Virus record (IMG/VR): IMGVR_UViG_3300003320_000853
Reading direction: 5' to 3' (one strand)
From: a virus
Lineage: Duplodnaviria > Caudoviricetes
Length of the DNA: 64,000 bases
Shown here: piece after piece, positions 11,381 through 34,432 of the stretch
Numbering within the stretch: position 1 is the first letter of the stretch
Layout of the letters: each line of letters opens with the position of its first letter
Program-made: the position numbers and the translations under genes
Notes under the pieces: model-generated
Told to the model about the DNA's origin: nothing
Seen by the model: the letters and a program-made list of their open reading frames with translations, nothing else
Databases searched by the model: none

Positions 11381-11886
11381 ACGTAGGCATCATCGCGGCC
11401 ATGACCCCGGACGGCATCATCGGGGTCGACGGCACCCTCCCCTGGCACTACAAGGCCGACCTCCAGCGATTCAAGCGCCAGACGATGGGTAGCTCCATCG
11501 TCTTCGGGGCGCGCACCTACGAGACCCTTCCTGGCCGACTCACGGGCCGGGTCGTCGTCGCGGTGAGTCGAGAGAGGCACCGGACGTGGGATCACAATAA
11601 TTGGCCCGACGGGGTCTATGGGAGTCTCGGCGCTGCGATCCACTTCGGAAAAGTGAGGACGGGCACTGTGTGGATCGGCGGTGGAGGGGAAATCTACCGC
11701 CTCGCGCTCGAACAGGGACTCGTGGAATTCATCGATCTCACGATCGTCCCCCCCGTTGAGGTTTCTCCGACCTTCAAGGTCACGAGGTTCCCTGTGGATC
11801 TTCTTGTTGGGTGGTCTCTGATCGAAGAGGCCCCGAACCCTGATGATCCTCGACTCCTCCAACGACGATACGAGCGTCTCGCATAG
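11377..11886 (+). CDS. folA: dihydrofolate reductase
   Basis: IIG..GTLPWHYKADL.RFK..T, GARTYE, IGGGEIY. Confidence 0.9.
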   Translation: MNVGIIAAMTPDGIIGVDGTLPWHYKADLQRFKRQTMGSSIVFGARTYETLPGRLTGRVVVAVSRERHRTWDHNNWPDGVYGSLGAAIHFGKVRTGTVWIGGGGEIYRLALEQGLVEFIDLTIVPPVEVSPTFKVTRFPVDLLVGWSLIEEAPNPDDPRLLQRRYERLA

Positions 11887-13105
11887 GGTCTTCCGTCGCT
11901 TTCTTGCGGACATGATCGCGGACGTGCCCGTCCAGCTCGACAAATTCCGAAAGGAAATCGTCGAGCCCGCTCTCGCCAGAGAGAAACACGTCGAGGATGT
12001 GATGGTTCTGCTCCGAGCTTTCCTCAAGGCGCGTGAGGAAAGCAACGATGCCGAGAGCCAGCGTCTCTCCCAGGATCTCCGGCAAGAAGATCGGTTCATC
12101 ACCGAGGTGAAGCTTCATTTCAGCTCGGACTACTGGTATCGCAAGGGCAAGGTGATCGCCGCCCCGCTCTTCTGGGCGATCATTCAGCAATACGCGATGC
12201 CCCCGCGGGTGCGGACGGTTATCGAGGGCGCCTCTCGATTCTGGTCGAAGACCCGGATCATGGTGCGTCTCAAGGCCAAGCCTTACAGTGATGCCGGCCA
12301 CCTGGAGTATTGTGAGGCATACCTCAAGCTCTGCGGTGAACTGCGGAAGCAACTTGACGCGGGCCAGATGTCCGTCGACAAGGGACAGCTCCATTCATCT
12401 CCGGATGCGACGACGAAGCTCAAGGCTGGGAGTTTCACCCTCATCAACACGGGCGGCTTCGATGACGACTTGATGAAGGGCGTCGTCGAGACCGTGGAGA
12501 AGGCTGAGCACGCGATGCGAGGCATCGGTCTCGGCAAGGTATGCTACGGGGACATCATGGTCACGAAGACCATCAAGTCGAAGACCACCGTGGCGGCCTT
12601 CTATGTCCTCGTCAACGATGAGATGTTCGTTCGAGCGAACGTCAAGCCCCACTGGGACACGGTACAGGTGGTCTGCCATGAGCTCGCGCATCGCTACCAG
12701 AACAAATTCCTCAAGGGTAAGCAGCGCGAGATCGACGATATTTACCGGCAGATCAGCAGAGCGAGCCGGATCACCGAAGACTTCCCCATCGAGATGTATC
12801 CGATGGCTGGTGACACGATCGTCGATCCGAAGTATGGTGAGCTCCAGGTCGTCAAACCTGACTATTCCAAGCAGAGCGTCAAGCTGATCTCGGATCAGAT
12901 GCCGGGTGTCTCCCTGTCGCTCCCTCTGGCCGCTTGGCTCAAGGCCAAGCACATTCAATGGCCCCCTCACGACGACACCAAGCTTCAATGGGTGACGGGC
13001 TATGCCAAGAAGGATCCCGACGAGAACTTCGCAGAGATGGTGTCCTTTCATGCGCTCGGAAAGCTCCCGCCTCCGCTGATCTCTTTGCTCGAACCCCTGC
13101 TATGA
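11843..13105 (+). CDS. zincin-like metallopeptidase (HExxH) carrying RVxxRF signal
   Basis: VCHELAHRY and GYAKKDPDENFAE; N-terminal SHRVFRRFLA; start uncertain. Confidence 0.75.
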   Translation: MILDSSNDDTSVSHRVFRRFLADMIADVPVQLDKFRKEIVEPALAREKHVEDVMVLLRAFLKAREESNDAESQRLSQDLRQEDRFITEVKLHFSSDYWYRKGKVIAAPLFWAIIQQYAMPPRVRTVIEGASRFWSKTRIMVRLKAKPYSDAGHLEYCEAYLKLCGELRKQLDAGQMSVDKGQLHSSPDATTKLKAGSFTLINTGGFDDDLMKGVVETVEKAEHAMRGIGLGKVCYGDIMVTKTIKSKTTVAAFYVLVNDEMFVRANVKPHWDTVQVVCHELAHRYQNKFLKGKQREIDDIYRQISRASRITEDFPIEMYPMAGDTIVDPKYGELQVVKPDYSKQSVKLISDQMPGVSLSLPLAAWLKAKHIQWPPHDDTKLQWVTGYAKKDPDENFAEMVSFHALGKLPPPLISLLEPLL

Positions 13106-13512
13106 TGCCCACATCCGACGCGAACGATGCCCTCCCGCTCAACACCTACTTCGCCGTCCAGCTCTTTCCTGGGGAGTTGGACAGTACGGCGATTGAGCCA
13201 GTCTTTCGGGTCTCAGCCGAGCACCGGAAATTCTTCCGGCGGCTCGAAATCCTCGACACCTTCTCCATGGGGTCGAACACTTTCCTTCGTTGCCGCGTAG
13301 ACCAGCCGGAGATGGCCGCCGTCCTCAACGAGGTCTTGCAGACCGGGCGCGGCGTTCTCTTTCGCTTGGGGGTGTCCTACATCGCCATGCTCCCTGGGGG
13401 CCGCACGGGCACAGTGGACCCTATGAAGATGCACTCCGCTTTCCAGGGGGGCCATCGCCGTCTCTACAAGGGGACGAAGATCAAGGGGTGGGAGCGGCAA
13501 TTCGCCGCGTAG
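13102..13512 (+). CDS. hypothetical protein
   Basis: ATGA overlap with the upstream stop. Confidence 0.65.
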   Translation: MMPTSDANDALPLNTYFAVQLFPGELDSTAIEPVFRVSAEHRKFFRRLEILDTFSMGSNTFLRCRVDQPEMAAVLNEVLQTGRGVLFRLGVSYIAMLPGGRTGTVDPMKMHSAFQGGHRRLYKGTKIKGWERQFAA

Positions 13513-13538
13513 GGATCCTTCTATGGCTTCGTGAAGAC

Positions 13539-14317: not shown

Positions 14318-14956
14318 ATGCTCCCGGCGCTACCTGTGATCGATCTGCTCTCTGTTCAACCCGATGCGGACGGTTTGGACATCTGGGCCGAAGATTTCGA
14401 TCGGAATTCTGTTCCGGCAGGGATCGGCGTCTACTGCTTCTACGACCCTACCACAGGAATGCCCCACTACATCGGGTCAGGTTGCGCGATCCACGCGAAT
14501 GGGGTGGGGGTATGGCGTCGGATCCTCGACTATCGGAAAGGCCCCAAGCAGTTCGTAGCCGCGCACAACAGGCGGATCGGCGAGGCTGTTCGCACCCTGG
14601 GTCTCCGACTCAAGGTGTGGTTGGTGGCCAGCAACGGGGACGCCAGGAAGTACGAGATGGATGCCATCGCCAAGTACCGGCCGTCCCTCAATAAGGTTGG
14701 CGCAGATGACCCGACACAAACGCTCGAAGCGGAGCGAGCCCAGGCACAAGCCTGTCACGACCGATCTCGGGCCAAATGGCTTGGAGTCTACGATCCCAAC
14801 GCTGTGAAACCTTGTAGCCGGTGCAAGACACCCAAGAAGTGTTCGGAATACCGTCGTTGTGATGGTTTCCCATTCGGCGTTCACAGGGCCTGCAAAACTT
14901 GTGAGAAGCTATCGAGGGCACAGATCAAGCAGCACAGCGTGGAGGGCGCGGAATGA
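14318..14956 (+). CDS. GIY-YIG endonuclease with C-terminal Zn finger
   Basis: GVYCFY...HYIGSG, E....KY.PSLN, CSRC..CKTC. Confidence 0.75.
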   Translation: MLPALPVIDLLSVQPDADGLDIWAEDFDRNSVPAGIGVYCFYDPTTGMPHYIGSGCAIHANGVGVWRRILDYRKGPKQFVAAHNRRIGEAVRTLGLRLKVWLVASNGDARKYEMDAIAKYRPSLNKVGADDPTQTLEAERAQAQACHDRSRAKWLGVYDPNAVKPCSRCKTPKKCSEYRRCDGFPFGVHRACKTCEKLSRAQIKQHSVEGAE

Positions 14957-15990
14957 ATCTCGTCGCTCGTGTCGTGGCTCGCTTCCTCCAGGCCGAGGAC
15001 GGTGAGGAGAAGAAACCCGGTAAGGGAGGCGTCCCCGCACGTTGGCAGGAGTTCCTCGACAAGGTTCATCACGGGGGCAAGGAAAGGGTCAAGAATCCCA
15101 ACCCGAAGACCCAGAGCCGCCACAAGGAAGTCGCTTACAGTACCGCCCTCAAATACCCGAAGTTCTTCTTGGAGGCGATGAAGGAGTACAACGAGTGGGC
15201 CAAGAAGAACCCCAAGGACAAGGGTGAGGGCGGCGCCAAGGGGAAGGCTCCCGAGGAGAAGCCGAAGTCTAGGACGCCGCTTCCGGAGGCCATCAAGGAT
15301 GCGGTCACGCGCGTCTTCGGGGACAACCCTCCGAGCGTGGAAGACTTCGAGGAGATGTTCTCGGTCGGGAAGGACCACAAGACCAAGATCACGAAGATCC
15401 GTCACGTCAAGGGAGCGGTGACCAACGATTTCGACTTCGAGGGGGATCCCGCCGAGCATGTCGTTCGGGGATCGGTCGAGGTCAACTACGAGATCCATGA
15501 CAAGGACGGGAAGGTCATCGGCCACGGAGCCCAGAACTTCAATACTGTCGACGGGGAGAAAGTCGTTTTCAACCAAGAGGTGAAGCTCGACGAGAAGTCC
15601 CAGGGACAAGGTCTCGGGAAGACCATGTTGAAGAACAACTTCACGGCGTTCAAGAAGATGGGCGTCAAGAAGTCCATGCTGAACGCCGACTGGAAGGGGC
15701 GCTACGTTTGGCCGCGCATGGGGTATGACTCGGACCCCGATACCGTGAATGCGATGAAGGACGACCTCCGGAAGCATCTTCGCACCGAGGTTGGGATCTC
15801 GAAGGCGGCAGCGGACAAGATCCTCGATGCCTGCAAGACGCTCCACGACATTTCTTCGGTTCGCGTCGACGGAGAACACGCGGGGAAGGATTTCCTCTTG
15901 AGCAAGAGGGCGAGAGTGTTCAGCGCCAGCATCTCGTTGGACGATGACGACCCGGGCTTCAAAATTTTGAAGGAATACGTGGGACTATGA
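14953..15990 (+). CDS. GNAT-domain protein carrying RVxARF signal
   Basis: MNLVARVVARFLQA; acetyl-CoA loop QGQGLGK; GRYVWPRMGY. Confidence 0.75.
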   Translation: MNLVARVVARFLQAEDGEEKKPGKGGVPARWQEFLDKVHHGGKERVKNPNPKTQSRHKEVAYSTALKYPKFFLEAMKEYNEWAKKNPKDKGEGGAKGKAPEEKPKSRTPLPEAIKDAVTRVFGDNPPSVEDFEEMFSVGKDHKTKITKIRHVKGAVTNDFDFEGDPAEHVVRGSVEVNYEIHDKDGKVIGHGAQNFNTVDGEKVVFNQEVKLDEKSQGQGLGKTMLKNNFTAFKKMGVKKSMLNADWKGRYVWPRMGYDSDPDTVNAMKDDLRKHLRTEVGISKAAADKILDACKTLHDISSVRVDGEHAGKDFLLSKRARVFSASISLDDDDPGFKILKEYVGL

Positions 15991-16181
15991 AGGCGGATGG
16001 TGATCTCACGTCTGACTTGGAAGGCGAAGTCGACAAGGGCGACTTCCTTGAATTCGACAAGGAGGGGAACCCCAAGAAGGCCAGCCTCGCAGCCCGCGTA
16101 CTCGCTCGTTTCCAACAAGCTTCAACAGGAGATGCCCATGACCATCGCCGCCACGTGCTTCCTCCTCGCTCCGACCGATAA
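15987..16181 (+). CDS. small acidic protein with RVLARF motif
   Basis: ATGA overlap; SLAARVLARFQQAS. Confidence 0.55.
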   Translation: MKADGDLTSDLEGEVDKGDFLEFDKEGNPKKASLAARVLARFQQASTGDAHDHRRHVLPPRSDR

Positions 16182-16695
16182 GGCTCGGCTCAAGCTTCGC
16201 CGGTACAAGAGCGGCTCCGGGACGTGTGAGGGCGCCGATGCCTATCACAATGCGTCGACCCCATTTGCCGTCGTCCCGGCGAACCTCGACAAGCAAGGGT
16301 ACCTCCAGCCTTGCGACCAGCTCGCGCCCTCTCACGACGACCCCCGCTGGCCTACGAAGTGCGAGGGGTGCGCCTACGAATTCCAGGAGGAGGACAAGTG
16401 GCAGCTCTTCCAGGAGATGCTCTACGTGCGCCCGGACACGGGCGAAGTCTTCACCCTTCGGGAGGCGCCGGTCGGGGCCATGTGGGACGCCTTCTGGCTC
16501 CCCTGGAAGGGGTCGGACGGACGCTCCCTCGTGGTGATGACCCCCGCTGGCGAATGGTCGATCGACGGCCCCTCCGAAAGCGGGGGCTACTGGACGCGGA
16601 CGGGCGAGCCCCCCAGGATCTCGGTGCAGCCGTCGATCCACTTTCCGGGGAAGTACCACGGGTGGCTCACGAACGGCGTGCTCACGCCGTGTTGA
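16138..16695 (+). CDS. DUF6527-like protein
   Basis: WTRTGEPPRISVQPSI..YHGWLTNG; AGGAG SD. Confidence 0.7.
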   Translation: MTIAATCFLLAPTDKARLKLRRYKSGSGTCEGADAYHNASTPFAVVPANLDKQGYLQPCDQLAPSHDDPRWPTKCEGCAYEFQEEDKWQLFQEMLYVRPDTGEVFTLREAPVGAMWDAFWLPWKGSDGRSLVVMTPAGEWSIDGPSESGGYWTRTGEPPRISVQPSIHFPGKYHGWLTNGVLTPC

Positions 16696-16725
16696 TTGTG
16701 TACGGCTTCGGCTTGTAGCAGGGGC

Positions 16726-17121
16726 ATGAGGCTCAAGTTCGTTTGGTTGGTTCGGAATCCAGACCCTCTCGTTCTTGCCGACGACCCTGTTTTCCTCGCC
16801 GACGAGGATCCGGAAGCGCGGAGGATCAACGAGTTCTGCTCCGAGGTTGGGGTCGAGAACGAGGCACTGTTCCGGGTCTATCTCGGGACATCGGATGCGA
16901 AAGATCCGTACCGCTGGGAGAACGAGAAGACAACCCTCTACACGGAAGAGGAGGAGGCCAAGGTAGACGCTCGCAAGCGGCTTGCGGCGCTCAGGCGGAA
17001 GTACACCGGGGCCAAGTGCCCCACGTGCAAGGGTCGTGGAATCGTGGGGGATATCCCTCACGGTGCCTGGGAGGTCTGTTCCGCCTGTCGCGGGGGTGGT
17101 CACGTTCCGCGGACGGTGTAG
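16726..17121 (+). CDS. hypothetical protein with DnaJ-type CxxCxGxG Zn finger
   Basis: CPTCKGRG...CSACRGGG; TTGATT-N16-TGTA promoter. Confidence 0.7.
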   Translation: MRLKFVWLVRNPDPLVLADDPVFLADEDPEARRINEFCSEVGVENEALFRVYLGTSDAKDPYRWENEKTTLYTEEEEAKVDARKRLAALRRKYTGAKCPTCKGRGIVGDIPHGAWEVCSACRGGGHVPRTV

Positions 17122-17129
17122 GATCGGAC

Positions 17130-18392
17130 ATGGCCGAGAAGCCCATCCCGAGGTGCGGGTTCTGTAAGAAACCGCGCAACGAAGTCAAGAACCTGGCAGG
17201 GGCCGGAGACGATGGCCCCCTCATCTGCGACAAGTGCGCTCGGCAGTTCACCCAGACGTTCGTCGAAGCCGAGCTGAAGAGGACCGAAGAGAAGCGCTTC
17301 GTTCTCCGCAAGCCGCGGGAGATCCGGGCCTTCCTCGACGACTACGTGATCGGGCAGGAGCGCGCCAAGCTCGATGTGAGCGTGGCGATCTACGAGCACT
17401 ACAAGCGCCGGAAGGCCGCCAAGGCCGGGGATGACCTCGGGGTCGAGATCCAGAAGAGCAACATGCTCGTCCTCGGACCAAGCGGCACGGGCAAGACGGA
17501 AATCTTCCGCACCGTGGCCCGCATGCTCGGGGTGCCTTTCTTCGTCGCCGACGCGACGAAGCTCACCCAGGCAGGGTACGTCGGGGACGACGTCGAGTCC
17601 ATCCTCCAGGGGCTCATCGCCGACGCAAACGGGGACATCGAGCGGGCGCAGTGGGGGATCATCCTCATCGACGAGATCGACAAGCTCGCCCGGAAGAGCG
17701 GGCGGGGCGCGACCGGCTACCGTGACGTGACCGGGGAGGGTGTTCAGCAGGCGCTGCTCAAGCTCCTCGAAGGCTCGCGCGTGAATGTCCCCCGGGGGAT
17801 GGGCAAGTCCATCATCGCCAACATGGAGTTCGACACGATCGACACGTCGAACATCCTCTTCATCGGAGCGGGCAGCTTCGCCGGGATCGAAGAGGCCATC
17901 AGCCGGCGCCTGAACAAAGATTCGGGCCTCGGGTTCGGCGCCGCCGACCGGAAGAAGGTCTCGAAGACGGACGCTTATCTCGCGGTCGAGGAAGACGACA
18001 TCCTCGACTTCGGGATGATCCCCGAGCTGATGGGCCGCATGCCGGTCATCACGACCACGATCGACCTCACCGAGGACGAGCTGATCGAGATCCTGACCAA
18101 GCCGAAGAACGCGATCATCAAGCAGTTCGTCGCGTCCTTCCGGATGGACAATATCGACCTCCAGTTCGACGAAGCTGCCCTCCGGGCCATCGCTCGCGAC
18201 GCGAAGAAGCGTCCCACCGGAGCCAGGGCGCTCCGGGCCATCGTCAAGCGGACCATCCGCCAGTTCAGCTACGACGCCCCGAGCGACCCGACCATCGGCT
18301 CGATCCGGGTCACAGAGGAGACCGTCACGAACGGCGCCGCGCCGGTCATTCTCCGCCGGGAGGCACCGGAGAAGCAGGAGGCGACCGGATGA
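17130..18392 (+). CDS. clpX: ATP-dependent Clp protease ATP-binding subunit ClpX
   Basis: C4 Zn domain, YVIGQ, GPSGTGKT, AGYVG, IDEIDK, GEGVQQALLK, LGF loop, TGARALR. Confidence 0.95.
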   Translation: MAEKPIPRCGFCKKPRNEVKNLAGAGDDGPLICDKCARQFTQTFVEAELKRTEEKRFVLRKPREIRAFLDDYVIGQERAKLDVSVAIYEHYKRRKAAKAGDDLGVEIQKSNMLVLGPSGTGKTEIFRTVARMLGVPFFVADATKLTQAGYVGDDVESILQGLIADANGDIERAQWGIILIDEIDKLARKSGRGATGYRDVTGEGVQQALLKLLEGSRVNVPRGMGKSIIANMEFDTIDTSNILFIGAGSFAGIEEAISRRLNKDSGLGFGAADRKKVSKTDAYLAVEEDDILDFGMIPELMGRMPVITTTIDLTEDELIEILTKPKNAIIKQFVASFRMDNIDLQFDEAALRAIARDAKKRPTGARALRAIVKRTIRQFSYDAPSDPTIGSIRVTEETVTNGAAPVILRREAPEKQEATG

Positions 18393-18766
18393 ACCTCGAC
18401 GAGGCCGCCAAGCAGGTTCGGGCTGGCAAGCGGGTCGCTCGCAAGGGCAAATCTCACAACGTCCTCTATGTCAGCGGACATTCGGTCACGATCTCCGATG
18501 AGGTGTGGTGCTCCTTCCGTCCCCTCACCGACGAGGAGCGGTCGGCCACCGACTGGCTGGCCGAGCACATCACCTGGGCGGTCAAACACCGCGTCAGAGG
18601 GATCTACATTCAGGAAGTCGATGACTGGCGCCTCGGGGGAACGCGCACACGTCGTGAGGCCATGCGTTTCCTGACGCTCGAAGCAGCCCGGGAGGAGCGG
18701 AACGGATGGGTCAGCCGTAAGAACCGCAAAAACTACGCCATCGTGAAGATCACGACGCGGGCATGA
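18389..18766 (+). CDS. hypothetical protein (DUF2829-like N-terminus)
   Basis: AGKRVARKG...ATDW; ATGA overlap. Confidence 0.65.
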   Translation: MNLDEAAKQVRAGKRVARKGKSHNVLYVSGHSVTISDEVWCSFRPLTDEERSATDWLAEHITWAVKHRVRGIYIQEVDDWRLGGTRTRREAMRFLTLEAAREERNGWVSRKNRKNYAIVKITTRA

Positions 18767-19098
18767 CGGATCTCGCCGACACCGCAGCCCGAGCTCGGGA
18801 GGTCAGCCGCCAGCTCAACGAGGCCATGCGTGAGCTGAACGAGAGCCTGGTGAATGCGGAGAGCGCCATGGCCAAGAGGCTCGGCCGGCAGGTGGTCGCC
18901 AACGTTCCGTTGACCCCCGGGACGTACCTGGTCTTCGCCGACGGGAAGCTCTTCTACGCGAACCAGGAGCATCGCGTCTCGATCCTTCACGTTTCCAAGA
19001 GATACCGGATGCTCGCCTGCTCCCGTCTGTATGCCCTCTGGCTTGCAGCCGGCGGCGAGCCCCTTCGAGGTTTCCATGGGCATTCCCCGCAAAGGTAG
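18763..19098 (+). CDS. hypothetical protein
   Basis: ATGA overlap. Confidence 0.65.
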   Translation: MTDLADTAARAREVSRQLNEAMRELNESLVNAESAMAKRLGRQVVANVPLTPGTYLVFADGKLFYANQEHRVSILHVSKRYRMLACSRLYALWLAAGGEPLRGFHGHSPQR

Positions 19099-19399
19099 TC
19101 GTTGGGTCTACGTCCAGGGGAAGAGATACCTCTTCCTCGTGAAGGAAGGGCACATCCCCGACCATCACGACCAGCCAGCGAACACGGTGGTCATCCAGGA
19201 GGACGACGAGAAGCCGGGCCGCGTTCTCCGGGGATGGTTCTTCCACGGGATCGAGATCACGCCGGCTCTCGTGCGGAAGCTCATCATCGAGGGCCACCAG
19301 ATCGGGTGGAACCCCTCCGATCGGGGCAGCGCCTTCGATCTTCCGCCGGATCGTGCCTCGGGCCGGTTCAACGAAGGCGACGTCTCGTCCTACCGCTGA
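19076..19399 (+). CDS. hypothetical protein
   Basis: MGIPRKGSR...ITPALVR..I...GW.P. Confidence 0.7.
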   Translation: MGIPRKGSRWVYVQGKRYLFLVKEGHIPDHHDQPANTVVIQEDDEKPGRVLRGWFFHGIEITPALVRKLIIEGHQIGWNPSDRGSAFDLPPDRASGRFNEGDVSSYR

Positions 19400-19431
19400 T
19401 CCATACAATCCTCTTGTGTGGGGACTCGAAC

Positions 19432-20010
19432 GTGAGTCCCAGCTCCTACAGGGTTGCCGCCCGTTTCATCGCCGAGCAGACCAAATCGGCCCCCAAGAAG
19501 GTCGACGACCTCTTCAAGGAAGTCAAGGACGGCAACCCGTCGTACTCCGACGAACAGGCGTGGGCCACAGCCTGGTCGATCTACTGCAAGCACGTCGACC
19601 CGGGCGGGTCCCACTGCAAGAAGTCTCCGGGGGAGTACCTCAAGGAGGCGTCCGCTCCTGTGGGATCCTGGGGCTCATACATCGAGAAGTGGTGCGAGGA
19701 TGTGCTCACGGCTCTTCAACGGAAGCTGACGCCGATCATGCGGGGGTGGAAGCCTACGGACATTCGTCGGAGCGGCTCAAGGCAGATCCTCGACTTCATC
19801 CGAGGGGATCGAGGGGATGGGACCCGGGAAGATGCCGGCGTCTCCCTTCAATGGGACGGATCCGGCATCGAGATCCGTGTGGATCTGGTCTCTCCGAAAT
19901 ATCACAACGTTGTGGTTCTATTGCAACAACGCGTTGCGTTCGATGAGACAGCCTTTGACGTATTGAAAAACGTCGAGCAAACATTCAAGTCGGAGATTTT
20001 TGCTCGATGA
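19432..20010 (+). CDS. RVxARF-signal protein
   Basis: GTG start, MSPSSYRVAARFIAE; NPSYSDEQAWATAWSIYCK. Confidence 0.7.
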   Translation: MSPSSYRVAARFIAEQTKSAPKKVDDLFKEVKDGNPSYSDEQAWATAWSIYCKHVDPGGSHCKKSPGEYLKEASAPVGSWGSYIEKWCEDVLTALQRKLTPIMRGWKPTDIRRSGSRQILDFIRGDRGDGTREDAGVSLQWDGSGIEIRVDLVSPKYHNVVVLLQQRVAFDETAFDVLKNVEQTFKSEIFAR

Positions 20011-20294: not shown

Positions 20295-20299
20295 GGTCT

Positions 20300-21502: not shown

Positions 21503-21529
21503 ATCCTGGGAGACGGTGTAGAGAGGGGC

Positions 21530-24188: not shown

Positions 24189-24276
24189 CATACCCATAAG
24201 ATGGAGGTTTTCTCCGGGGAACTCTTTCCTCCGTTTGTCTAGGACGGACGGGGATGTGCATCTGGAGAAGACAGAC

Positions 24277-25056: not shown

Positions 25057-25086
25057 TCGCGTCGGGCGTCGGTGTCTCTTGATCCG

Positions 25087-25967: not shown

Positions 25968-26578
25968 AGCGGCAGCTCCCCGTCATCCTCGAACGCGATC
26001 TCAACAAGGTGCGGACAGAGCGGTACCTGCGTTCTGAGAATTTCGTGAATGGTGTGCGGGATTCGGCGGAGATTTCATGCTCCGTCGGATGCTCGGCGTG
26101 CTGCTCGCACCCTGTGATGATCGGCCTCCTCGAAGGCTTCCTGGTCTACCGTTGGCTCTCCTTGCATGGGATGTGGACGACCGATCTGCAAGCTCGTCTC
26201 CAGAAGCACGCGAACGAGACGTGGACGCTCGCCCATGAGGTCTGGTGGCTCAGCAACATCCCCTGCCCGCTCCTCGTGAACGATCGTTGCTCTGTCCATG
26301 AGGGTAGGCCTTTCGTCTGTCGGGTGACGCTCTCCACGGGCGACCCCGTTTTCTGTCATCCCCATCGCCTTGGGTTGGAGACGGGCATTGTCTCTCGTGC
26401 CGATGTGGTCGGGGAATTCCAGCGTCTGGAGGAGCAGAAGCTCCGGGCTCATGGTCTCGTGACCCTCCAGTTCCCGATCAGCAAGGCTCTGCTCCTCGCC
26501 GAGGCCATCCTTACCGGAACGCTCGCGATCGAAGCCGTGGCGGCCTTACTCGTGAAGGATTTCAGGGCTGAAGCATGA
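25964..26578 (+). CDS. YkgJ-like CxxxCxxCC cysteine-cluster protein
   Basis: CSVGCSACC, CPLL, CSVHEGRPFVCR. Confidence 0.85.
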   Translation: MKRQLPVILERDLNKVRTERYLRSENFVNGVRDSAEISCSVGCSACCSHPVMIGLLEGFLVYRWLSLHGMWTTDLQARLQKHANETWTLAHEVWWLSNIPCPLLVNDRCSVHEGRPFVCRVTLSTGDPVFCHPHRLGLETGIVSRADVVGEFQRLEEQKLRAHGLVTLQFPISKALLLAEAILTGTLAIEAVAALLVKDFRAEA

Positions 26579-26850
26579 AGTGCTGCGTCTGTTCCGCCGA
26601 CCGGGAGTGCGTCGTCCTCACACTCACCGACGACGAGAAGGCTGCCATCCGAGCCATGGGGCAGACGCCACAGGAGACCCTCGCCTACTGCCGGCCGTGC
26701 TTCCGTCTCCTGTCGAACCCCGAGCAGGGAGCGCAACTCATCCGGGGTACCTTCCAGGTCGGTCTCCAGAACGCGGGTATCGCGAACGCCGAGAAGCTGG
26801 CTCGCAGGTACTACGACTTCCTCCTCTCGAAGGCCAAGCGCCGCAACTAA
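26575..26850 (+). CDS. hypothetical Zn-finger protein
   Basis: CCVC...YCRPC. Confidence 0.7.
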   Translation: MKCCVCSADRECVVLTLTDDEKAAIRAMGQTPQETLAYCRPCFRLLSNPEQGAQLIRGTFQVGLQNAGIANAEKLARRYYDFLLSKAKRRN

Positions 26851-26863
26851 CCCGGAGACGAGC

Positions 26864-27430
26864 ATGAACGAGCAGCAAAGGCAGACCATCAAGGAGCTTC
26901 TCCAGAAGGCTGGGATCGATCCCGAGGGTCAGGACGTGGAGACTGCCTTCGCACAGATGGTGAAGGCGAGGATCCCGGGGATGTCCTCCCAGGCGCAGCA
27001 CACCGCCTTCATGTCGGGTTTCGACGCCTACTGTTTCACAATGCAGGCCATCTGCTCGGGCAACGCGGAGAACGAAGCGCTCGGGCGAAAGACGCTCTAC
27101 CAGGCGTTCGATGTTGCGAAGAAAGCCACCGAAGTCACCGAGAAGCTCCGGGAAGTGCCCGAAGCCGCGACGAGTGAGGCTTCGGAGGTGTTCAAGCGGC
27201 CCCCACCGGAGTTCGCCGAAGCTCAAGAGCAACAAGCACTTCTGGCCGAGCTGAACGCCATCTCAGACATCGCCGGACTCACCGAGTGGTACGTGGAGAC
27301 AAGGGCGCGGAGGGATCTGGTGCGAACGCAGAGCCTCCGCAACAAGCTCTACGACGCCATCCGTGAGCGACGCAACAATTTGACCGAGCGTTTGAGGATC
27401 TCGGTCGTGGAAGGACAGACAGAGGAATGA
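26864..27430 (+). CDS. hypothetical protein
   Basis: GGAG SD; helical composition. Confidence 0.7.
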   Translation: MNEQQRQTIKELLQKAGIDPEGQDVETAFAQMVKARIPGMSSQAQHTAFMSGFDAYCFTMQAICSGNAENEALGRKTLYQAFDVAKKATEVTEKLREVPEAATSEASEVFKRPPPEFAEAQEQQALLAELNAISDIAGLTEWYVETRARRDLVRTQSLRNKLYDAIRERRNNLTERLRISVVEGQTEE

Positions 27431-27822
27431 AGGTATTGGTTACTGGCGGTCGCGACTACATGAACCGCGACCGGATCCGTCAGGTGTTCGAGAAGCTCGC
27501 GGCGAAGTATAAGCGAGTCATCGTCGTCCACGGGGATTGCCCCACGGGTGCGGACCACATCGCGGACGAGCTGGCCAAGGAGTTCGGCTTCGAGGTGCGG
27601 CCCTATCCCGCCGACTGGGACCGAGCGGAGGCTGAGGGGCACCGGAATTCAGCCGGGCCGAAGCGCAACTCCACGATGATTCGGGAGGAGCATCCAGACA
27701 AGGATGGCACCCCCATCGATCTCTGCCTGGCCTTCACCACGGACCTCAAGCGCAGCCGCGGGACCAAGGATTGCTTCCAGAAGGCTGGCGCCGCGGGCAT
27801 CAAGGGTCTCGTCTTCGGCTAG
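27427..27822 (+). CDS. SLOG/YspA-like (DUF2493) protein
   Basis: VLVTGGRDY, VHGDCPTGAD, ADW...AGPKRN, SRGT. Confidence 0.88.
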   Translation: MKVLVTGGRDYMNRDRIRQVFEKLAAKYKRVIVVHGDCPTGADHIADELAKEFGFEVRPYPADWDRAEAEGHRNSAGPKRNSTMIREEHPDKDGTPIDLCLAFTTDLKRSRGTKDCFQKAGAAGIKGLVFG

Positions 27823-28005
27823 TTCAAGACCCTGCCCCATCTCCATGCGGGGTGCGGCCCGCGAAAGGCCCCCCAGAGGAACGTGCAGAGAAATCGAGGA
27901 TCCCCAGCTTCCCGTTGCTCTTGAATGTAGCGAAGGGCCGATGGCGAGATCCTGGGTCGAGGGTACATACGTGGAGGGTGCACCTGTTTGGTGTACCGTA
28001 CGGGC

Positions 28006-28215
28006 ATGGCCCGTACCATTCCCATCCCGACCCGCGAGGACGAGCGGATCTCCGCCTTCATGACGAAGCATGAGGCGGCCCACAAGGGCGTCGACGTGGG
28101 CGACATTGGGGGCCGGTACACCTACGAGATTACCCCGACGAGTCTCGGCACAAAGATCGTCATCCGGTGCGCGTGCGGCGACCATGCGGACGTGACAGCC
28201 TATGACGAGTGGTGA
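28006..28215 (+). CDS. small phage protein
   Basis: IGGRYTY..TPTSLG..C.CG..DVT.Y..W; GGTGTA 10 nt upstream. Confidence 0.75.
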   Translation: MARTIPIPTREDERISAFMTKHEAAHKGVDVGDIGGRYTYEITPTSLGTKIVIRCACGDHADVTAYDEW

Positions 28216-28216
28216 A

Positions 28217-28663
28217 ATGAACTACCGCATCGTCAACAACCTCTTCACGCCGATCGAACGGGTGCTGCTCCTCGGGATGGGGGATCTGACACCGGGATGG
28301 GTCCCAGGGAGGCAAGGCACGGGGTACGAGCGGGCTCCCGTCCAGTTCGACGAGCTGGAAGCTCGGTGCCTCAAAGAGCTGGGCGTCCCTCCCGAGACCG
28401 GGCACGACGCCTACCTCATCCGGTATCGGGAAGGTGCGTTCATCCCTCCCCACAAGGACGACGCGCCCTTCGGAACCGAGCACCGGAGGATCAACATCTT
28501 GCTCTCCCACGCCGAGGAGGGCGGCGTGCTCCGCTTCGATGGGGAAGTCATCGAGCTCGATGAGCTGGACGCGATCGTGTTCCGGCCCGACCTTGTCCTC
28601 CACGAAGTCTCGCCGGTCACGAAGGGCCAGCGTGTGCTCTGGACGGTGGGGGTGCTGGTGTAG
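28217..28663 (+). CDS. 2OG-Fe(II) oxygenase
   Basis: YLIRY, HKD, GG, HEVSPVTKGQR. Confidence 0.85.
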   Translation: MNYRIVNNLFTPIERVLLLGMGDLTPGWVPGRQGTGYERAPVQFDELEARCLKELGVPPETGHDAYLIRYREGAFIPPHKDDAPFGTEHRRINILLSHAEEGGVLRFDGEVIELDELDAIVFRPDLVLHEVSPVTKGQRVLWTVGVLV

Positions 28664-28672
28664 CCGGGGCGC

Positions 28673-29653
28673 ATGCCCAAGATCGAAAGTCTCAAGTCCG
28701 TCAAGACCATCGTCTGCCATGCGAATTGTTCGGATGGTCTCGCATCCGCGATGATCCTCCACAACGTGCTGCCGGACGCCAAGATCGTCTTCCTCCAGTA
28801 CAACACGCCCGAGCTGGCCGCCTTCGAGGCGACCGAGGGACAGCTCTGGTGTGATTTCTGCCCGCCGGCCGATCGTTTCCAGGAGTTCGTCGCGGCTGGT
28901 GCCATCGTGCTCGACCACCACAAGACTGCCAAGATCACCGTCGCGGAGTTCGGTGAGAACGGCGTATTCGCCGACGAGAAAGACGAGCCTGGGGTCTCCG
29001 GCGCGCTCCTCGCCTACCGTCACGTGTGGGTACCTCTAGCGGCGGAGTGGCACGCGGGGGTCGGTAGCGGGAAAGAGTACGCCCGCATCGTCGAACGCCT
29101 CGCCACCCTGGCGGGGATCCGCGACACTTGGCAACGCCAGAGCCCCGACTGGATGGCGGCAATGGCTCAGGCCGAGGCGCTCCAATTCTGGCCGAAGGAA
29201 GAGTGGCTCGACGAGGACGTGTGGGACTGGGGGGAGAAGGCCAAGATCGGCATGACCTTGCTCGCGAAGCACGCGGAGAAGGTCGACAAGGCCGTCAAGG
29301 GTAGCTTCCGTTTCACCTCGTCCAAGGGCAATCGCGTCCTCATGTTCCAGGGGGTGTCGACGACCAGCGACGCCGCCGAGAAGATCGGGGATGGGGCCGA
29401 TATCATCGTCGGCTTCCGGTACGAGACCGATGCCGAAGGGCACAAGATCGTTTTCTCGCTTCGGAGCCACACGGGCTTCGATTGCTCGAAGCTCGCGAAG
29501 GAACACCCGGGCGGCGGTGGGCACACGGCCGCCGCCGGGTTCGCCTATCGGTTTCGGGCCACTCACGACCCCTACCTTCTTTTCGAGGGGATGCTCGACG
29601 CCCATGAGCGGGGACTGTCTTGGCCCCAGGAGATGCCCCTGTGCCCTCGATGA
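28673..29653 (+). CDS. DHH/DHHA1 phosphoesterase
   Basis: HANCSDG, LDHH, SLRS, GGGH..AAG. Confidence 0.9.
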   Translation: MPKIESLKSVKTIVCHANCSDGLASAMILHNVLPDAKIVFLQYNTPELAAFEATEGQLWCDFCPPADRFQEFVAAGAIVLDHHKTAKITVAEFGENGVFADEKDEPGVSGALLAYRHVWVPLAAEWHAGVGSGKEYARIVERLATLAGIRDTWQRQSPDWMAAMAQAEALQFWPKEEWLDEDVWDWGEKAKIGMTLLAKHAEKVDKAVKGSFRFTSSKGNRVLMFQGVSTTSDAAEKIGDGADIIVGFRYETDAEGHKIVFSLRSHTGFDCSKLAKEHPGGGGHTAAAGFAYRFRATHDPYLLFEGMLDAHERGLSWPQEMPLCPR

Positions 29654-30114
29654 GGAGCCATGAGAGGGGTCAGAGGAAGCAACTCCGAGCTCTGGCCCAA
29701 CAGGTGAGCCGGAAGCTCGCCGACATCAACCAGCGGGTCAACATGCAAGCCTTCGGCTTCTCCCTCGCCCTGGTCTCGTCCCTTCTCGTGTCGGGCGTCT
29801 CGCGCTTCTCCACGCAGGGCGGTCGGCTCGACCGAGCTATCAAGCTCGCCGTCGAGCGAGGCGCCTTCACCCCGTGGAAGAACTCCCTCGCCTTCGTCGA
29901 CACCATGGTGGGTCTCCGCTGCGTCCAGTTGCAGGAGACCCTCTTGATCGCTCAGATGGCGGGGATCCTCTGGTTCGTGGGGCCGTCCTTCAACGAGGCC
30001 GAGATCGTCATCTCGGTCGAGACCGCAAGGACGATGCTCCGGAGCAACAAGCTCGACGAAGAGACGGCCCGGAGTTGGGGGGCCGCCTTGGTCGCGGCCC
30101 TCGCCGAGGTCTAG
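29650..30114 (+). CDS. hypothetical protein
   Basis: ATGA overlap. Confidence 0.6.
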   Translation: MRSHERGQRKQLRALAQQVSRKLADINQRVNMQAFGFSLALVSSLLVSGVSRFSTQGGRLDRAIKLAVERGAFTPWKNSLAFVDTMVGLRCVQLQETLLIAQMAGILWFVGPSFNEAEIVISVETARTMLRSNKLDEETARSWGAALVAALAEV

Positions 30115-30428
30115 CCGTTGTAGCTCTCGAAGCCGCGGGGGTCGGGCGGCGTCGTGTTCGGGATCTTGGTCCTGGCGAACTCGATCGCGCTGGATGCCGC
30201 ATTCGCGGCGGTTTCTCCCGCCGCGAAGACGCCGAGCAGGGCGTTGATGCGGGGGGCGTTCTTCTGAACGACCGCGATGGCCGCCATGACGTCGCCGATC
30301 TCCGCGCCGGTGAGGATCATCTGGAGGACGTGTCCGGCCCACTTGGCCTCGACGAGAGCCTTGCGGGTGTTGTTCAGCCCGTCGTGGGCGGCCATCAGCT
30401 TCTCGTGAGTCTCGTCTGCAATGAACAT
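30111..30428 (-). CDS. hypothetical protein
   Basis: GGTGTA 11 nt upstream on - strand; GGAG SD. Confidence 0.7.
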   Translation of the reverse strand: MFIADETHEKLMAAHDGLNNTRKALVEAKWAGHVLQMILTGAEIGDVMAAIAVVQKNAPRINALLGVFAAGETAANAASSAIEFARTKIPNTTPPDPRGFESYNG

Positions 30429-30529
30429 AGGGGTCTCCTTACACCAAGGCGCCCGTCACGGGCACGTCTTTCCTACAACGCTCTGGCGGCGCCGATCAAC
30501 ATTCTGTCTTTAGCCCGGCCTCCCGTAGG

Positions 30530-30805
30530 ATGGACATCGCTCGCCGGGTCGTTCTTCGAGTTCTTGGGCATCAGGTCGGGACGTTTACTCTCCCGAAAGA
30601 TCATCTCTTCGGGATGCGAGTACCCGATGGGGGGTCGAGCTGCGCCAAGTGCCTCTTCGTGAGCGACGACGGGAAGCACTGTGGTAACCCCTACTTCCAG
30701 GACTGGCGAAAATCTCTGAAGGAGAAGGATCCGAGCCTGCTCCCCCACCCGGCCGACAGCTATTGCTGCGACGTCTTTCAGGCGCAGGGGTCCGATGACA
30801 CCTAA
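30530..30805 (+). CDS. small Cys-rich protein with RVxxRV signal
   Basis: MDIARRVVLRV; CAKC..C..YCC. Confidence 0.7.
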   Translation: MDIARRVVLRVLGHQVGTFTLPKDHLFGMRVPDGGSSCAKCLFVSDDGKHCGNPYFQDWRKSLKEKDPSLLPHPADSYCCDVFQAQGSDDT

Positions 30806-32603
30806 GACCGCCAGCACGGTGCGCGTCCTCGTCCTCGTCGAGGACACCCGGAAGGCTCGGGCTCGCTGGCCGGCTCTCGATGAGCTTGTGGTTGCCGAGT
30901 TTATGGGAACCATCCCGCTCTACCGCATCTTCGACGAGAACGAGCTGCAACACATCCTTCGCTCGGGGAAGATCACGGGTGGGAACTACTCCGTTCCCGC
31001 CGAGCGCTCTTTCGGTGCTTCCTGGGGGTCGAACGTCACACAGGTGATCGAGTGGGGGAACCGACTCCGAGGGAAGAGACTCGGCTCGAACCTATACCTG
31101 GCCAAGATCGACGGCTACGGACACCGATTCTTGCACCTGAGCCCTGAGATCAAGTTCGACATCGACAATCCGGAACCGCAGAAGTCTATCGTGGATTCAT
31201 CCCGATTCAACGTAGGGCTCGGTTGCTCCGTTGCGGATGTCGGCACGAACGAAGCGGAGTTCTACGTCATCACGGAAGACCACCGGATGCACAGCCTCGA
31301 CGATCAGGAGCTCCGGGCCCTGAAGAAGGGATCTTCTGCGCAGCGGGTGGCGGCTCGATTCCTTCAAGCTCGGGATCAATATTTCGAGCTTGGGGACATT
31401 GTAACCTACGGGAAATACAAGAACCACCGTGGGAAGATCGTCAACTTCGGAAAGGACAAGTGGGGCAACCCCACGGTCGAGGTCGAGCCCATCCCCAAGG
31501 GTCGGAAGCAAAACAAGGTCTTCGGCCTGTTCAAGATTTGGAGGGCGGACGTGAAGGAGAAGGCGCTCGCGGAGCAGGCAGCGAAGGAAGGTCTGACGGC
31601 TCGGGTCATCGCTCGCTTCGAGCAGGCCAAGGGGACGCCGCGGGGCTGGGAGCACCGGAAGGAGAAGGACGACTTCACGGAGCAGAACATCCCTCCCGAG
31701 TACCTGGTTCTCTGGCGGAAGCTCAAGAACCGCTTCAAGGGCACCCCTCATGAGCGTGCCGAGCAATTCATGGAGTACGTGGAGGAGCATCCTGGGGAGA
31801 ACACAGAGGCCCTCCAAGAGAACGCCGACAAGGAAGTCGCCAAGATGACCCGGGAGTGGGCACAGAAGCACCGGGAACAGGTGAAGCTGGAGAAGGAGTG
31901 CGACAAGACCCAGACCAAGTACGAGGACGCTTGGTACAAGGAACAGGAGCGGGCCACCAAGGAAAAGAACAACCTCAAGCAGTTGCAGGAGAAGGCAGAA
32001 GGCGCTTGCAAGGCATGCCCCACCTGTGACGAGAGCGAGGGCCCGAGAGATTACCCCGACAGCGGCGGGCACGACGACAACATCCCGTTCGCAGCCTCCC
32101 GGGTTGCTGCAAGATTCGCGGCCCTCGAAGGTCTCCCCCGGGATCCTTCCCCGATCAGGGGGCTCGCGCCCGAGGACACGGACAACTACTGGGGCTGGCA
32201 GTACACCAGAGGTTTCCTCGACGCGGGACCGCTCCCGCACCTGGCGTCCCGCGTACGCTCCCGATTCCGGCGCGACAACGCCAGACGGACCGCGGCCATT
32301 GCAGGAGCGCTTCCGTTGCCTCCAGAGCTCCAGGGCCATCCGGCTCTCACGCAAGGGCTCACGACGATCGAGAATGCGAATGGCTTTCTCGGGACAATCG
32401 AGGATGAGGCCGGCACGTGGATCGCGTGGGTTGAGCCGAGCGGTGAAGCCGTGCTCTACACGAATCGGGAGCCTGACGGAGGAACCATCGGCGACGGCTA
32501 CGCCTTCCGACGGGATGACCTCGTCACGGCGCCGACGCTCACGGTGCCCAACCCTCTTCTCCGGCACGCACCTAGACAAGAACAAGGCCCTACCAACGGG
32601 TAG
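30795..32603 (+). CDS. polyprotein-like protein with four internal RVxxRF motifs
   Basis: QRVAARFLQA, ARVIARFEQA, SRVAARFAA and SRVRSRFRR separate five modules. Confidence 0.8.
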   Translation: MTPKTASTVRVLVLVEDTRKARARWPALDELVVAEFMGTIPLYRIFDENELQHILRSGKITGGNYSVPAERSFGASWGSNVTQVIEWGNRLRGKRLGSNLYLAKIDGYGHRFLHLSPEIKFDIDNPEPQKSIVDSSRFNVGLGCSVADVGTNEAEFYVITEDHRMHSLDDQELRALKKGSSAQRVAARFLQARDQYFELGDIVTYGKYKNHRGKIVNFGKDKWGNPTVEVEPIPKGRKQNKVFGLFKIWRADVKEKALAEQAAKEGLTARVIARFEQAKGTPRGWEHRKEKDDFTEQNIPPEYLVLWRKLKNRFKGTPHERAEQFMEYVEEHPGENTEALQENADKEVAKMTREWAQKHREQVKLEKECDKTQTKYEDAWYKEQERATKEKNNLKQLQEKAEGACKACPTCDESEGPRDYPDSGGHDDNIPFAASRVAARFAALEGLPRDPSPIRGLAPEDTDNYWGWQYTRGFLDAGPLPHLASRVRSRFRRDNARRTAAIAGALPLPPELQGHPALTQGLTTIENANGFLGTIEDEAGTWIAWVEPSGEAVLYTNREPDGGTIGDGYAFRRDDLVTAPTLTVPNPLLRHAPRQEQGPTNG

Positions 32604-32626
32604 TGTTCTTGTAGGGCGCACTTTGC

Positions 32627-33322
32627 ATGATCTGCAAAGTGTCGGAGTGTGGGCAGGGAGTGTGCGCGCAAGGTCTGTGTCGAAAGCACTACCGCAAGGC
32701 CCGCCTCGAAGGGACGATCGAGATCAAGTCCAAGCATGGGGGATGCAAGGCTCCTGAATGCCCGAAGCCCCACTACGCCAAGGGGTTCTGTGACGAGCAC
32801 TACTGGCTCCAAAAGAACAGCGGAGGCCTTGTCCGGACGCGAGCCCGTTCCGGATCGGTCAAACGAGCGAACGGGTACCGCTTCGTCGGCGTAGACGGGA
32901 AGATGGTACCCGAGCACCGACACCTGATGGAGATCCATCTCAGGAGGCCCCTCCAGAAAAACGAGGTGATCTCACACAAGAACGGGGATCCCTCGGACAA
33001 CCGCCTTGACAATCTGGAACTGTACGTTCCCGGAACTGGAGGGTATGTCGCCTGGAACGGGTACCGCATCCTCCACAAGGGCGGGTACGATATCCCCGAG
33101 CATCGGTACATCATGGAGCAGATCCTCGGGCGCCAGCTCCGAGCGGGAGAGAACGTCCATCACAAGAACGGGGATCGCCTGGACAACCGGCCGGAGAATT
33201 TGGAGCTGTGGTCGTGCCATCAGCCGAGCGGCCAACGGGTTGTCGACAAGGTTCAGTGGGCCCGCGAGATCCTTCGCCAGTACGAGACCGATCTGGAGAT
33301 CCTCATGCAGCTCGATCGGTAA
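32627..33322 (+). CDS. HNH endonuclease with tandem HNH domains
   Basis: EHR...HKNGD..DNR..NLEL twice; GLC..HY repeats. Confidence 0.9.
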   Translation: MICKVSECGQGVCAQGLCRKHYRKARLEGTIEIKSKHGGCKAPECPKPHYAKGFCDEHYWLQKNSGGLVRTRARSGSVKRANGYRFVGVDGKMVPEHRHLMEIHLRRPLQKNEVISHKNGDPSDNRLDNLELYVPGTGGYVAWNGYRILHKGGYDIPEHRYIMEQILGRQLRAGENVHHKNGDRLDNRPENLELWSCHQPSGQRVVDKVQWAREILRQYETDLEILMQLDR

Positions 33323-33346
33323 CCCTCTTCTAGGAGGCCGGAAGTG

Positions 33347-34432
33347 ATGAGCACGACCCAGGCTCTTCGCGTGCTGGCGAAGTATAAAGCCAAAAAGAAG
33401 GTCAAGAACAAGGACGGGGAGGAAACGACCGTCTACGAGTACAGCGACAAGCAGATCGCGAACCGGAACCGCGAGAAGGCGAAGCGCATCGAGAAGCTCC
33501 GCCACAAGATCGACGACGTTCGAGCCAAGGTCAAGAAGGACATGAAGTCCGCTGACCCCGAAAAGATGCTCACGGCGCTCGCGGTCGGGCTCATGGACCA
33601 CACGTTCGAACGGGTCGGGAACGAAGAGTCTGCCGACGAGGGCCATTTCGGGGTCACTGGATGGCAGCGGAAGCACGTCTCGTTCGGCAAGGATGTGACC
33701 ATCAAGTACGTCGGCAAGAGCGGCGTCAAGCACGAGAAGAAGGTCACCGACCCGGCCCTCAAGAAGGCGCTCCGGGACGCCTATGAAGCCAGCGACGACG
33801 AGGACGCGAGCCTCTTCGAGTACGAGGGGGGAAAGGTTACGGCCGAGAAAGTCAACGCCTACCTCAAGGAGTTCGACGTCACGGCGAAGGACATCCGCGG
33901 GATGCACGCCAACGTCGAGATGCAGGAGCGTCTCAAGGAAGTCCGGAAGAAGGGCGGCAAGCTCCCCGAGGACAAGAAGAAGCGAGAGAAGCAGCTCAAG
34001 GACGAGTTCAAGGAAGCGCTCGAAGGAGCCGCCGAGGCTGTGGGGCACGAACCCTCGACGCTCAAGAGCCAGTACCTCGTCCCCGGCCTGGAGGAGTCGT
34101 ACCTCAAGGATGGGACGGTCGTCGACAAGCTCTCCCATCGCGTCCTGGCGCGTTTCCTGGCGGCGACGCAGATTGCCTATGGGCCAGCGGGCGCATGCCT
34201 CACCTTCCAGGCAGACTTCCCCCTGACCACCCCGTGCGAGAAGTGTGGGGCAGATGCGTCCCTTCACGTCACGCTGTCCGAAGATGGCCCGACTCTGGAG
34301 ACGTACAGGCCAGAGTACGATGCAGCCGTTGCTCGGGGTTGGGTCGATCCCGTGGGCCACGACCTTGCGGCGTTCGCGACCTACATTTGCCCGGAATGTT
34401 ACGCGGCGACGACACTCTGGAATCAGGCGTGA
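33347..34432 (+). CDS. DNA topoisomerase IB catalytic domain fused via RVLARF to Zn-finger module
   Basis: ERVGNE, YVGKSGV, TAKDIR, VGH, catalytic Tyr in SQYL; C-terminal CEKC..CPEC. Confidence 0.88.
   Translation: MSTTQALRVLAKYKAKKKVKNKDGEETTVYEYSDKQIANRNREKAKRIEKLRHKIDDVRAKVKKDMKSADPEKMLTALAVGLMDHTFERVGNEESADEGHFGVTGWQRKHVSFGKDVTIKYVGKSGVKHEKKVTDPALKKALRDAYEASDDEDASLFEYEGGKVTAEKVNAYLKEFDVTAKDIRGMHANVEMQERLKEVRKKGGKLPEDKKKREKQLKDEFKEALEGAAEAVGHEPSTLKSQYLVPGLEESYLKDGTVVDKLSHRVLARFLAATQIAYGPAGACLTFQADFPLTTPCEKCGADASLHVTLSEDGPTLETYRPEYDAAVARGWVDPVGHDLAAFATYICPECYAATTLWNQA

Follow-up and report, generated by a model that had tools for sequence, protein, structure and literature searches.

A portable peptide tag shared by unrelated proteins across a clade of huge phages, and the phage ClpX as its possible reader

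In the 64,000-nucleotide viral stretch IMGVR_UViG_3300003320_000853 (Caudoviricetes; hereafter the window), nine unrelated proteins carry one short peptide, and the question is what this peptide does. An earlier note on this DNA had suggested that the peptide loads injected effectors into the prohead and/or marks sites of polyprotein cleavage. We confirmed that it is a real tag, that it is conserved at the peptide level and portable, and that a whole clade of huge phages retains it. We infer that one shared partner reads the tag in trans. The phage-encoded ClpX may be this reader; that role, and degradation as its outcome, are speculative. No description of the motif was found in the literature searched.

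Translation of the window gives 14 R-V-x-[AS]-R-[FY]-like peptides between 11885 and 34165, all in coding frames of the + strand, and they are the peptides that the earlier note had reported. Ten of the 14 have the strict form RV.[AS]R[FY] (14968–34139, all in + strand frames), and the three minus-strand frames of the window contain no strict match. Among the non-canonical copies, position 6 is Val at 20315 and 30545, and position 5 is Lys at 33368. The doubt whether such a motif exceeds chance was answered by 2000 residue shuffles of the window proteins, which held 0.08 strict copies on average and at most 2, against 10 observed. When the 14 copies are made into a position matrix, they score 25.9–34.9 bits and the next best window site 10.3 bits; this scoring is circular, being done on the copies that built the matrix, and its value is that it reveals no further copies in the window. 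In an all-against-all BLASTP of the nine carriers, the alignments cover the tag only, as expected from the earlier claim that the carriers have no other similarity. The codons of the conserved R, V, A and R vary freely from copy to copy. Therefore conservation acts on the peptide and not on the DNA, and a DNA-level repeat, which we had considered, is ruled out by the same variation. Thus the motif is a portable peptide gained by unrelated proteins, as had been supposed.

The tag has a preferred position. Half of the window copies (7 of 14) lie at residues 6–15 after the start codon, and to this extent the N-terminal bias described in the earlier note stands; the copy at 19450 is N-terminal only if its gene starts from the GTG at 19432. 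The 150 best metagenomic homologues contain 103 motif copies versus 12 in shuffles, 40% of them within the first 20 residues versus 5% expected, with the consensus L(-3) A(-2) x R V A A R [FY] L x A. The tag is about 14 residues long (h-A-x-R-V-A-A-R-[FY]-L-x-A, where h is a hydrophobic residue), and its usual place is 4–10 residues past the initiator Met. Most copies in the relatives are N-terminal; of those scored across whole genomes, roughly one half to two thirds have an ATG at most 12 codons upstream. Past the aromatic position no Glu or other residue is fixed, and the only recurrent residues are Leu/Ile at +1 and Ala at +3. In several carriers the residues that follow the tag are rich in Gly, Lys and Glu. 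A Tat or Sec signal was considered and ruled out by these charged linkers, which stand where a hydrophobic core would be.

To what structure could such a peptide correspond? AlphaFold predicts a helix at both copies that flank a barrel module (M2) of a 602-aa carrier and at both copies of a topoisomerase IB; these two proteins are described below. The modules were folded singly, and a global MAFFT alignment of all module homologues was too poor for folding; the topoisomerase model rests on a shallow alignment. The tag helices are modelled with moderate-to-low confidence and without confident packing on a neighbouring domain, while the adjacent domains are confident. The low predicted local distance difference test (pLDDT) values and the Gly/Lys/Glu linkers support a flexible context of the tag. 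Judged by how its conserved hydrophobic and basic residues are spaced, the helix would be amphipathic. Of the amphipathic helix proposed earlier, the helix is therefore borne out in the modelled copies, and the amphipathicity is suggested by residue spacing. The predicted helix and its linker together have the architecture of a tethered docking helix.

The copies inside proteins need a separate explanation. They are the retained heads of tagged genes fused to upstream tagged genes. The 400-aa carrier at 20300–21502 (+ strand) consists of two fused modules and has the tags RVLARVKAT (20315–20341, residue 6) and RVLARYRRS (20699–20725, residue 134). Its residues 126–392 match stand-alone genes at four related loci (L002, L004, L006 and L030), in which the tag lies a few residues past Met. 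The stand-alone homologues begin at the tag, and therefore residue 134 marks where the head of a once separate gene was kept after fusion.

The 602-aa protein (30795–32603, + strand) is a chain of four modules with the tags RVAARFLQA (31344–31370), RVIARFEQA (31602–31628), RVAARFAA (32100–32126) and RVRSRFRR (32250–32276). A phmmer search with this protein against 1.84 billion representatives gave 759 hits in four blocks, and the edges of these blocks coincide with the tag positions. The first block, M1 (residues 4–180), has an ADP-ribosyltransferase-like fold, with DarT, Tox-ART, RES and PARP-type folds as the nearest structures; this assignment is a lead only. M2 (residues 182–283) is an SH3/Tudor/KOW-like barrel; its Foldseek matches are weak and generic, and its conservation, 50–78% identity across clusters, is far above that of the other modules. 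M3 (residues 258–445) terminates in DDNIPF, and M4 occupies residues 482–590. Each block is found alone, often tag-first, or within proteins of up to 2570 aa, and homologous modules occur in multi-domain proteins of 1100–2570 aa. One giant homologue joins a PolyA_pol nucleotidyltransferase, topoisomerase IB and M1, and the phage-like contig that encodes it also has inteins and homing endonucleases. Tagging at both ends is seen in many stand-alone proteins of about 100 aa, which consist of a tag, the barrel, a helix and a second tag. Peptide patterns retrieved no close relatives of the 602-aa protein from IMG/VR; relatives were later found through synteny and phmmer. Among 50,697 GenBank phage records, the M2 barrel was not found in any cultured phage. 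In two related huge phages, G001 and G002, the 602-aa region is split into separate genes for a barrel protein, an HExxH peptidase, a block 4 protein and the topoisomerase, each of them tagged.

Topoisomerase IB (33347–34432, + strand, 361 aa) has its first tag, RVLAKYKAK, at 33368–33394 (residue 8), followed by the catalytic core, a second tag, RVLARFLAA, at 34139–34165 (residue 265), and a Cys-rich C-terminal domain. As the earlier note had placed it, the second copy is past the catalytic Tyr (KSQY), at a distance of about 15 residues. Topoisomerase orthologues have different N- and C-terminal additions depending on the phage, with a tag-like helix at every seam, and in the relative LR745208 the C-terminal end of the enzyme is itself a tag-like peptide. 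The proposal that internal copies mark domain boundaries thus holds, in that homologues stand alone or start at those junctions. An HNH homing-type endonuclease gene (32627–33322), with DNA similarity to actinobacteriophage HNH genes, lies between the 602-aa protein and the topoisomerase.

Two further observations concern these modules. A single in-frame stop (TGA, L007:4038–4040) separates the tag-ending barrel gene in G002 from the HExxH peptidase gene, whose tag begins two codons past the stop. The same junction is present in G001 (L008, about 9846–9848, minus strand). The end of M3 (DDNIPF, 32073–32090) resembles the C-terminal tip of SSB, which is DDDIPF. It is possible that this end mimics the SSB tail and competes for host SSB partners, judging by the sequence.

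The seams raise the possibility of polyprotein processing, in which a phage peptidase, for example the tagged HExxH enzyme, cuts at or next to the motif, and fused and split arrangements yield the same products. Junctions fused in one phage and split in another are always at the motif. The stand-alone M3 homologues P0003 and P0015 end in ...IPF or ...VPF at a true C-terminus, but when M3 is fused, ...IPF continues as AAS-RV.... The protein P0029 has tandem tag copies in a Gly/Pro linker, and zincin-like peptidases are the proposed processors of polyvalent proteins (PMC5512222). However, with most copies 4–10 residues past the initiator Met, a cut would remove only a few residues. R1, V2, R5, the aromatic residue 6 and A9 are spaced along one face of a helix and do not resemble an extended P4-P1' site, and several giant homologues have few or no tag copies between their domains. 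The cleavage at the motif suggested in the earlier note is also disfavoured, as no conserved residue like a protease site follows the motif and the T4-type [LI]-x-E is absent. We regard processing as improbable.

How widely is the tag used? LR745208, a 485-kb record that is itself a metagenomic assembly, is the only GenBank phage with DNA similarity to the window. A search with the ClpX protein recovers IMG/VR contigs of 83–529 kb with conserved gene order. The tag occurs throughout a clade of 200–530 kb phages, of which no member is cultured and whose ClpX is 55–70% identical to the window ClpX. The tag profile found 11, 11 and 7 copies in three partial relatives, and fuller scans gave about 13 in G001, 15 in G002 and about 10 within 120 kb of G007. 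G008, a complete genome of 435 kb, encodes ClpX together with about 16 N-terminal tags, whose consensus, RVA[RA][LA][FY]L, is a slightly shifted dialect. Tags are rarer in LR745208, the only relative that lacks ClpX (about 8–10), and about half of them lack the aromatic residue. With the strict matrix, 66 ClpX loci of unrelated viral contigs (1.18 Mb) gave 0 matches; a loose N-terminal pattern gave 12 in these loci, about a tenth of the clade density. The tag is thus confined to one huge-phage clade.

Tagged carriers in G008 include a J-domain protein (L174:12160–13503, minus strand) and a DRAT-like ADP-ribosyltransferase (L183:17999–19225, minus strand), both with the tag at the N-terminus, and also a weakly matching zinc peptidase. 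Of 20 further tagged proteins run against Pfam and PHROGs, almost all are orphans, and no tagged protein matched a virion family in either database. Judging by their domains, the tagged modules look like host-takeover enzymes: an HExxH peptidase, an ADP-ribosyltransferase-like fold, topoisomerase IB and a J-domain protein. A variant with N in place of the first R (NVVSRY, NIIARF, NVVARF) is limited to one orthologous gene, and other tags at those loci stay RV. We considered such clade-specific dialects as a co-evolution test against changes in the zinc-binding domain of ClpX and set it aside, the N variant being one gene and two dialects too few.

It can be argued that the tag has no function in trans and is what remains of a common N-terminal cassette that recombination has spread, or an effect of the translation-initiation region. 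Copies do adjoin start codons and cluster in runs. However, the peptide is kept despite free synonymous variation, orthologues only 40–70% identical retain it, copies persist far from start codons, and the tagged phages that conserve it range from 52 to 65% GC. This explanation is very improbable. If the tag is instead read in trans, each independently folding accessory module would be headed by its own tag and recognized by one shared partner, and fusion of two tagged genes would leave the downstream tag at the junction, which would give the internal copies.

Which partner could this be? The window encodes a 420-aa ClpX (17130–18392, + strand), itself without a tag, which has a zf-C4_ClpX match, a GYVG pore loop and an LGF (IGF-type) ClpP-docking loop. 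The four Cys of its N-domain are invariant in five aligned clade sequences, and eight further clade ClpX genes have the N-terminal zinc-finger segment. A 128-aa N-terminal extension (start at 16743) was rejected, as the relatives and the GGTGTA element described below set the start at 17130. An intein lies inside the Walker A motif of ClpX (GPSG-C...HN-TGKT) in the related huge phages L035 and L037 (about 8560–10890). Tagged genes flank ClpX at every locus of the clade, which favours ClpX as the reader. Of 13 loci, 7 have a tag-first gene immediately after ClpX, and this slot is occupied by at least four genes that are not orthologous.

In E. coli, the C-terminal XB/XBR peptide of SspB (...ALRVVK) docks on the zinc-binding N-domain of ClpX. 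The phage tag is likewise a short peptide with a flexible tether and a basic and aliphatic core, and the gene for a ClpX whose zinc-binding domain is intact lies among the tagged ones. Unlike the SspB peptide, the tag is predicted to form a longer helix, in which the second Arg is invariant and an aromatic residue is present; it lies mostly at N-termini, and it is found on dozens of enzymes rather than one adaptor; its binding to ClpX is putative. Some tags read L-R-V-V or L-R-V-A, the core of the consensus L-[KR]-x-h that binds the E. coli ClpX zinc-binding domain (PMC7226468). We tentatively favour the phage ClpX as the reader, at somewhat less than even confidence. Its zinc-binding N-domain would tether the tag in the way known for the SspB tail; alternatively, the tag would serve as an N-terminal degron. 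A cohort of host-takeover enzymes could then be unfolded, remodelled or, with the host ClpP, removed on schedule.

Several facts weigh against ClpX. LR745208 has neither ClpX nor any AAA_2 protein, yet some of its N-terminal tags are well formed, for example ADRVASRFLQAKG; therefore the phage ClpX is not the sole reader, unless the host ClpX substitutes for it. Five related records gave no ClpP gene, and degradation would therefore need a host protease. Some copies are C-terminal or internal, and a degron acting at a free N-terminus would not need these. The linkage to ClpX is partly inherited synteny, so the loci do not count as independent cases. Most tags do not fit L-[KR]-x-h: R-V-[AVL] is invariant, and Leu at position -1 is present in only 12 of 92 copies. 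Co-folding of two ClpX zinc-binding domains with Zn and the first 40 residues of the carrier that starts at 14953 gave a score close to zero, which is no verdict either way. A more far-reaching version of the ClpX reading, which we consider decidedly improbable, is that the clade runs a genome-wide address code. In this version the helix-tagged host-takeover cohort would be a non-covalent polyvalent protein, which ClpX would unfold and hand on, for example by prohead threading for injection or by timed release.

In the capsid-targeting explanation, which is close to that of the earlier note, the helix binds the scaffold or the inner capsid, and the tagged enzymes enter the prohead and are injected with the DNA. 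Separate modules would then each need a tag of their own, where a covalent polyvalent protein needs one. Short N-terminal capsid-targeting sequences (CTS) are known from the T4 internal proteins IPI–III and Alt, an ADP-ribosyltransferase, and are cleaved at [LI]-x-E. The phage tag is similarly a short N-terminal peptide of unrelated proteins, portable in principle, and ADP-ribosyltransferase-like modules are tagged here. Its location is also extreme, 4–15 residues past the start in 7 of the 14 window copies and most of those in relatives. In contrast to the T4 sequence, it has no [LI]-x-E and occurs also at C-termini and between domains. In bacterial microcompartment encapsulation peptides and encapsulin cargo-loading peptides, a terminal amphipathic helix and a flexible linker precede enzymes of unrelated kinds. 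By analogy, the phage tag may share this layout, as it shares that of the T4 sequence; its sequence differs, and no gene for a shell or an encapsulin is evident here.

The domains of the carriers are of kinds that packaged or polyvalent proteins have: HExxH peptidases, the tentative ADP-ribosyltransferase-like fold, the DRAT-like enzyme of G008 and topoisomerase IB. In this respect the resemblance to polyvalent-protein domains noticed earlier holds, including the modules in giant proteins. Polyvalent proteins of phages and conjugative elements, inferred to be packaged, have zincin-like peptidase and ADP-ribosyltransferase among their domains (Iyer et al. 2017; PMC5512222). The tagged proteins overlap with this repertoire, shuffle modules freely, have homologues of up to 2570 aa, and can unite unrelated effector-type domains in one polypeptide, as in the four-module 602-aa protein; tagged HExxH proteins belong here too. 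The difference is that the modules are mostly separate genes, each self-tagged. No such tag is described by Iyer et al. (PMC5512222), whose mentions of N-terminal helices refer to domain folds.

The surroundings speak against capsid loading. The window has 63% GC, and the genes in the tagged region are almost all on the + strand. Window genes include a family A polymerase, an AAA protein, NT5C, thymidylate synthase, a CN-hydrolase, DUF1848, a DHH protein, the HNH endonuclease, a Dam methylase, a transglycosylase and a dNMP kinase. By gene content the tagged region is a replication and nucleotide-metabolism stretch; the carriers lie among such genes and around ClpX and not in a head module. No conserved residue of the kind that a maturation-protease site would have follows the tag, the carriers lack matches to virion families, and nothing connects the tag with genes for scaffold, portal or protease. 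PF03420 (the T4 gp21-type prohead protease) had no match in five related records, and control genomes gave none either. Prohead loading as proposed in the earlier note is thus weakened, as the region is not a head module and the comparative evidence points at least as strongly to ClpX. Capsid targeting is possible but rather unlikely.

Another hub could read the tag, or the tags could bind each other, giving a non-covalent polyvalent complex. The candidates are a replication-factory scaffold, the M2 barrel, which is often tagged on both sides, and self-association through a small-residue face of the helix. Copies at N-termini, C-termini and linkers are what docking motifs would show, the numerous tag-barrel-helix-tag proteins and the high conservation of M2 fit a hub, and the tags persist in LR745208 without ClpX. 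Ala at positions -2, 3, 4 and 9 would form the small face needed for self-association. However, no direct evidence points to any such partner, and the barrel was not found in G003, G004 (both fragments) or LR745208, all of which are tagged; its weak and generic structural matches also speak against it. We therefore consider a hub of this kind unlikely, and return to ClpX as the preferred reader.

The remaining carriers, all on the + strand, have tags near the N-terminus or of doubtful frame. A 420-aa zinc-peptidase-like protein with HExxH (HELAH) is encoded at 11843–13105; its tag RVFRRFLAD (11885–11911) is at residue 15, and its orthologue in L002 retains an N-terminal RVYRRFMAD. The 345-aa protein at 14953–15990, with a weak GNAT match, has RVVARFLQA at residue 6 (14968–14994), followed by a Glu/Lys/Gly linker, and its orthologue at L004:8703 begins MIAARVVARY. 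After ClpX come a 192-aa protein read from the GTG (19432–20010; RVAARFIAE, 19450–19476, residue 7), whose homologue in L034 begins MSVLSDRVLRRF and stands directly after ClpX, and a 95-aa protein (20007–20294; RVVSRFIEA, 20025–20051, residue 7). A 91-aa protein (30530–30805) has the weak variant RVVLRVLGH at residue 6 (30545–30571).

The copy at 16095 is less clear. The peptide RVLARFQQA (16095–16121) reported earlier is present, but at residue 37 of a 64-aa open reading frame (ORF) at 15987–16181, in another frame than the 232-aa DUF6527-like ORF at 15997–16695. Between 15987 and 16695, the coding bias (frame and GC at third codon positions) shifts near 16100 from the frame of the small ORF to that of the DUF6527-like ORF. 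Judging by this shift, the tag may belong to a small gene, or a frameshift, programmed or due to an assembly error, may join a tagged head to the DUF6527-like body.

The transcription of these genes may be organized by another element. In 20 genes of the + strand, one of them ClpX (17115–17120, 9 nt before ATG), the start codon, ATG or GTG, lies 9–12 nt past a GGTGTA; further sites are, for example, at 2874, 6265, 10193, 21515, 28657, 48878 and 58509. The element is absent upstream of all carriers, which have Shine-Dalgarno-like sites instead; in this the earlier note was right. Its placement suggests a phage-specific promoter, or an element for leaderless starts, by which transcription units are defined. 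ClpX has GGTGTA and the genes at 19432, 20007 and 20300 do not, which fits one co-transcribed unit.

One gene on the minus strand at about 39062 has an acidic C-terminal ending, PTAWEVLLNDDLG; in G001 (350 kb) only one gene ends in this way. With a second, acidic C-terminal tag in the same genome as the N-terminal tag, these phages may have several parallel address systems.

To our knowledge, short portable targeting peptides of phages are known from a few cases only, such as the T4 CTS. Here one tag is used by dozens of unrelated proteins per genome across a clade of uncultured 200–530 kb phages, and the seams along which their accessory genes fuse and split are marked by it. Once its reader is identified, a class of orphan huge-phage proteins could be annotated as one functional cohort, the reason why these phages carry their own ClpX would become clear, and the tag would be a ready-made means of sending proteins to that machine or compartment. 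If ClpX indeed reads the tag and hands the proteins on, these phages would have a virus-encoded protein-sorting machine with its own signal peptide.

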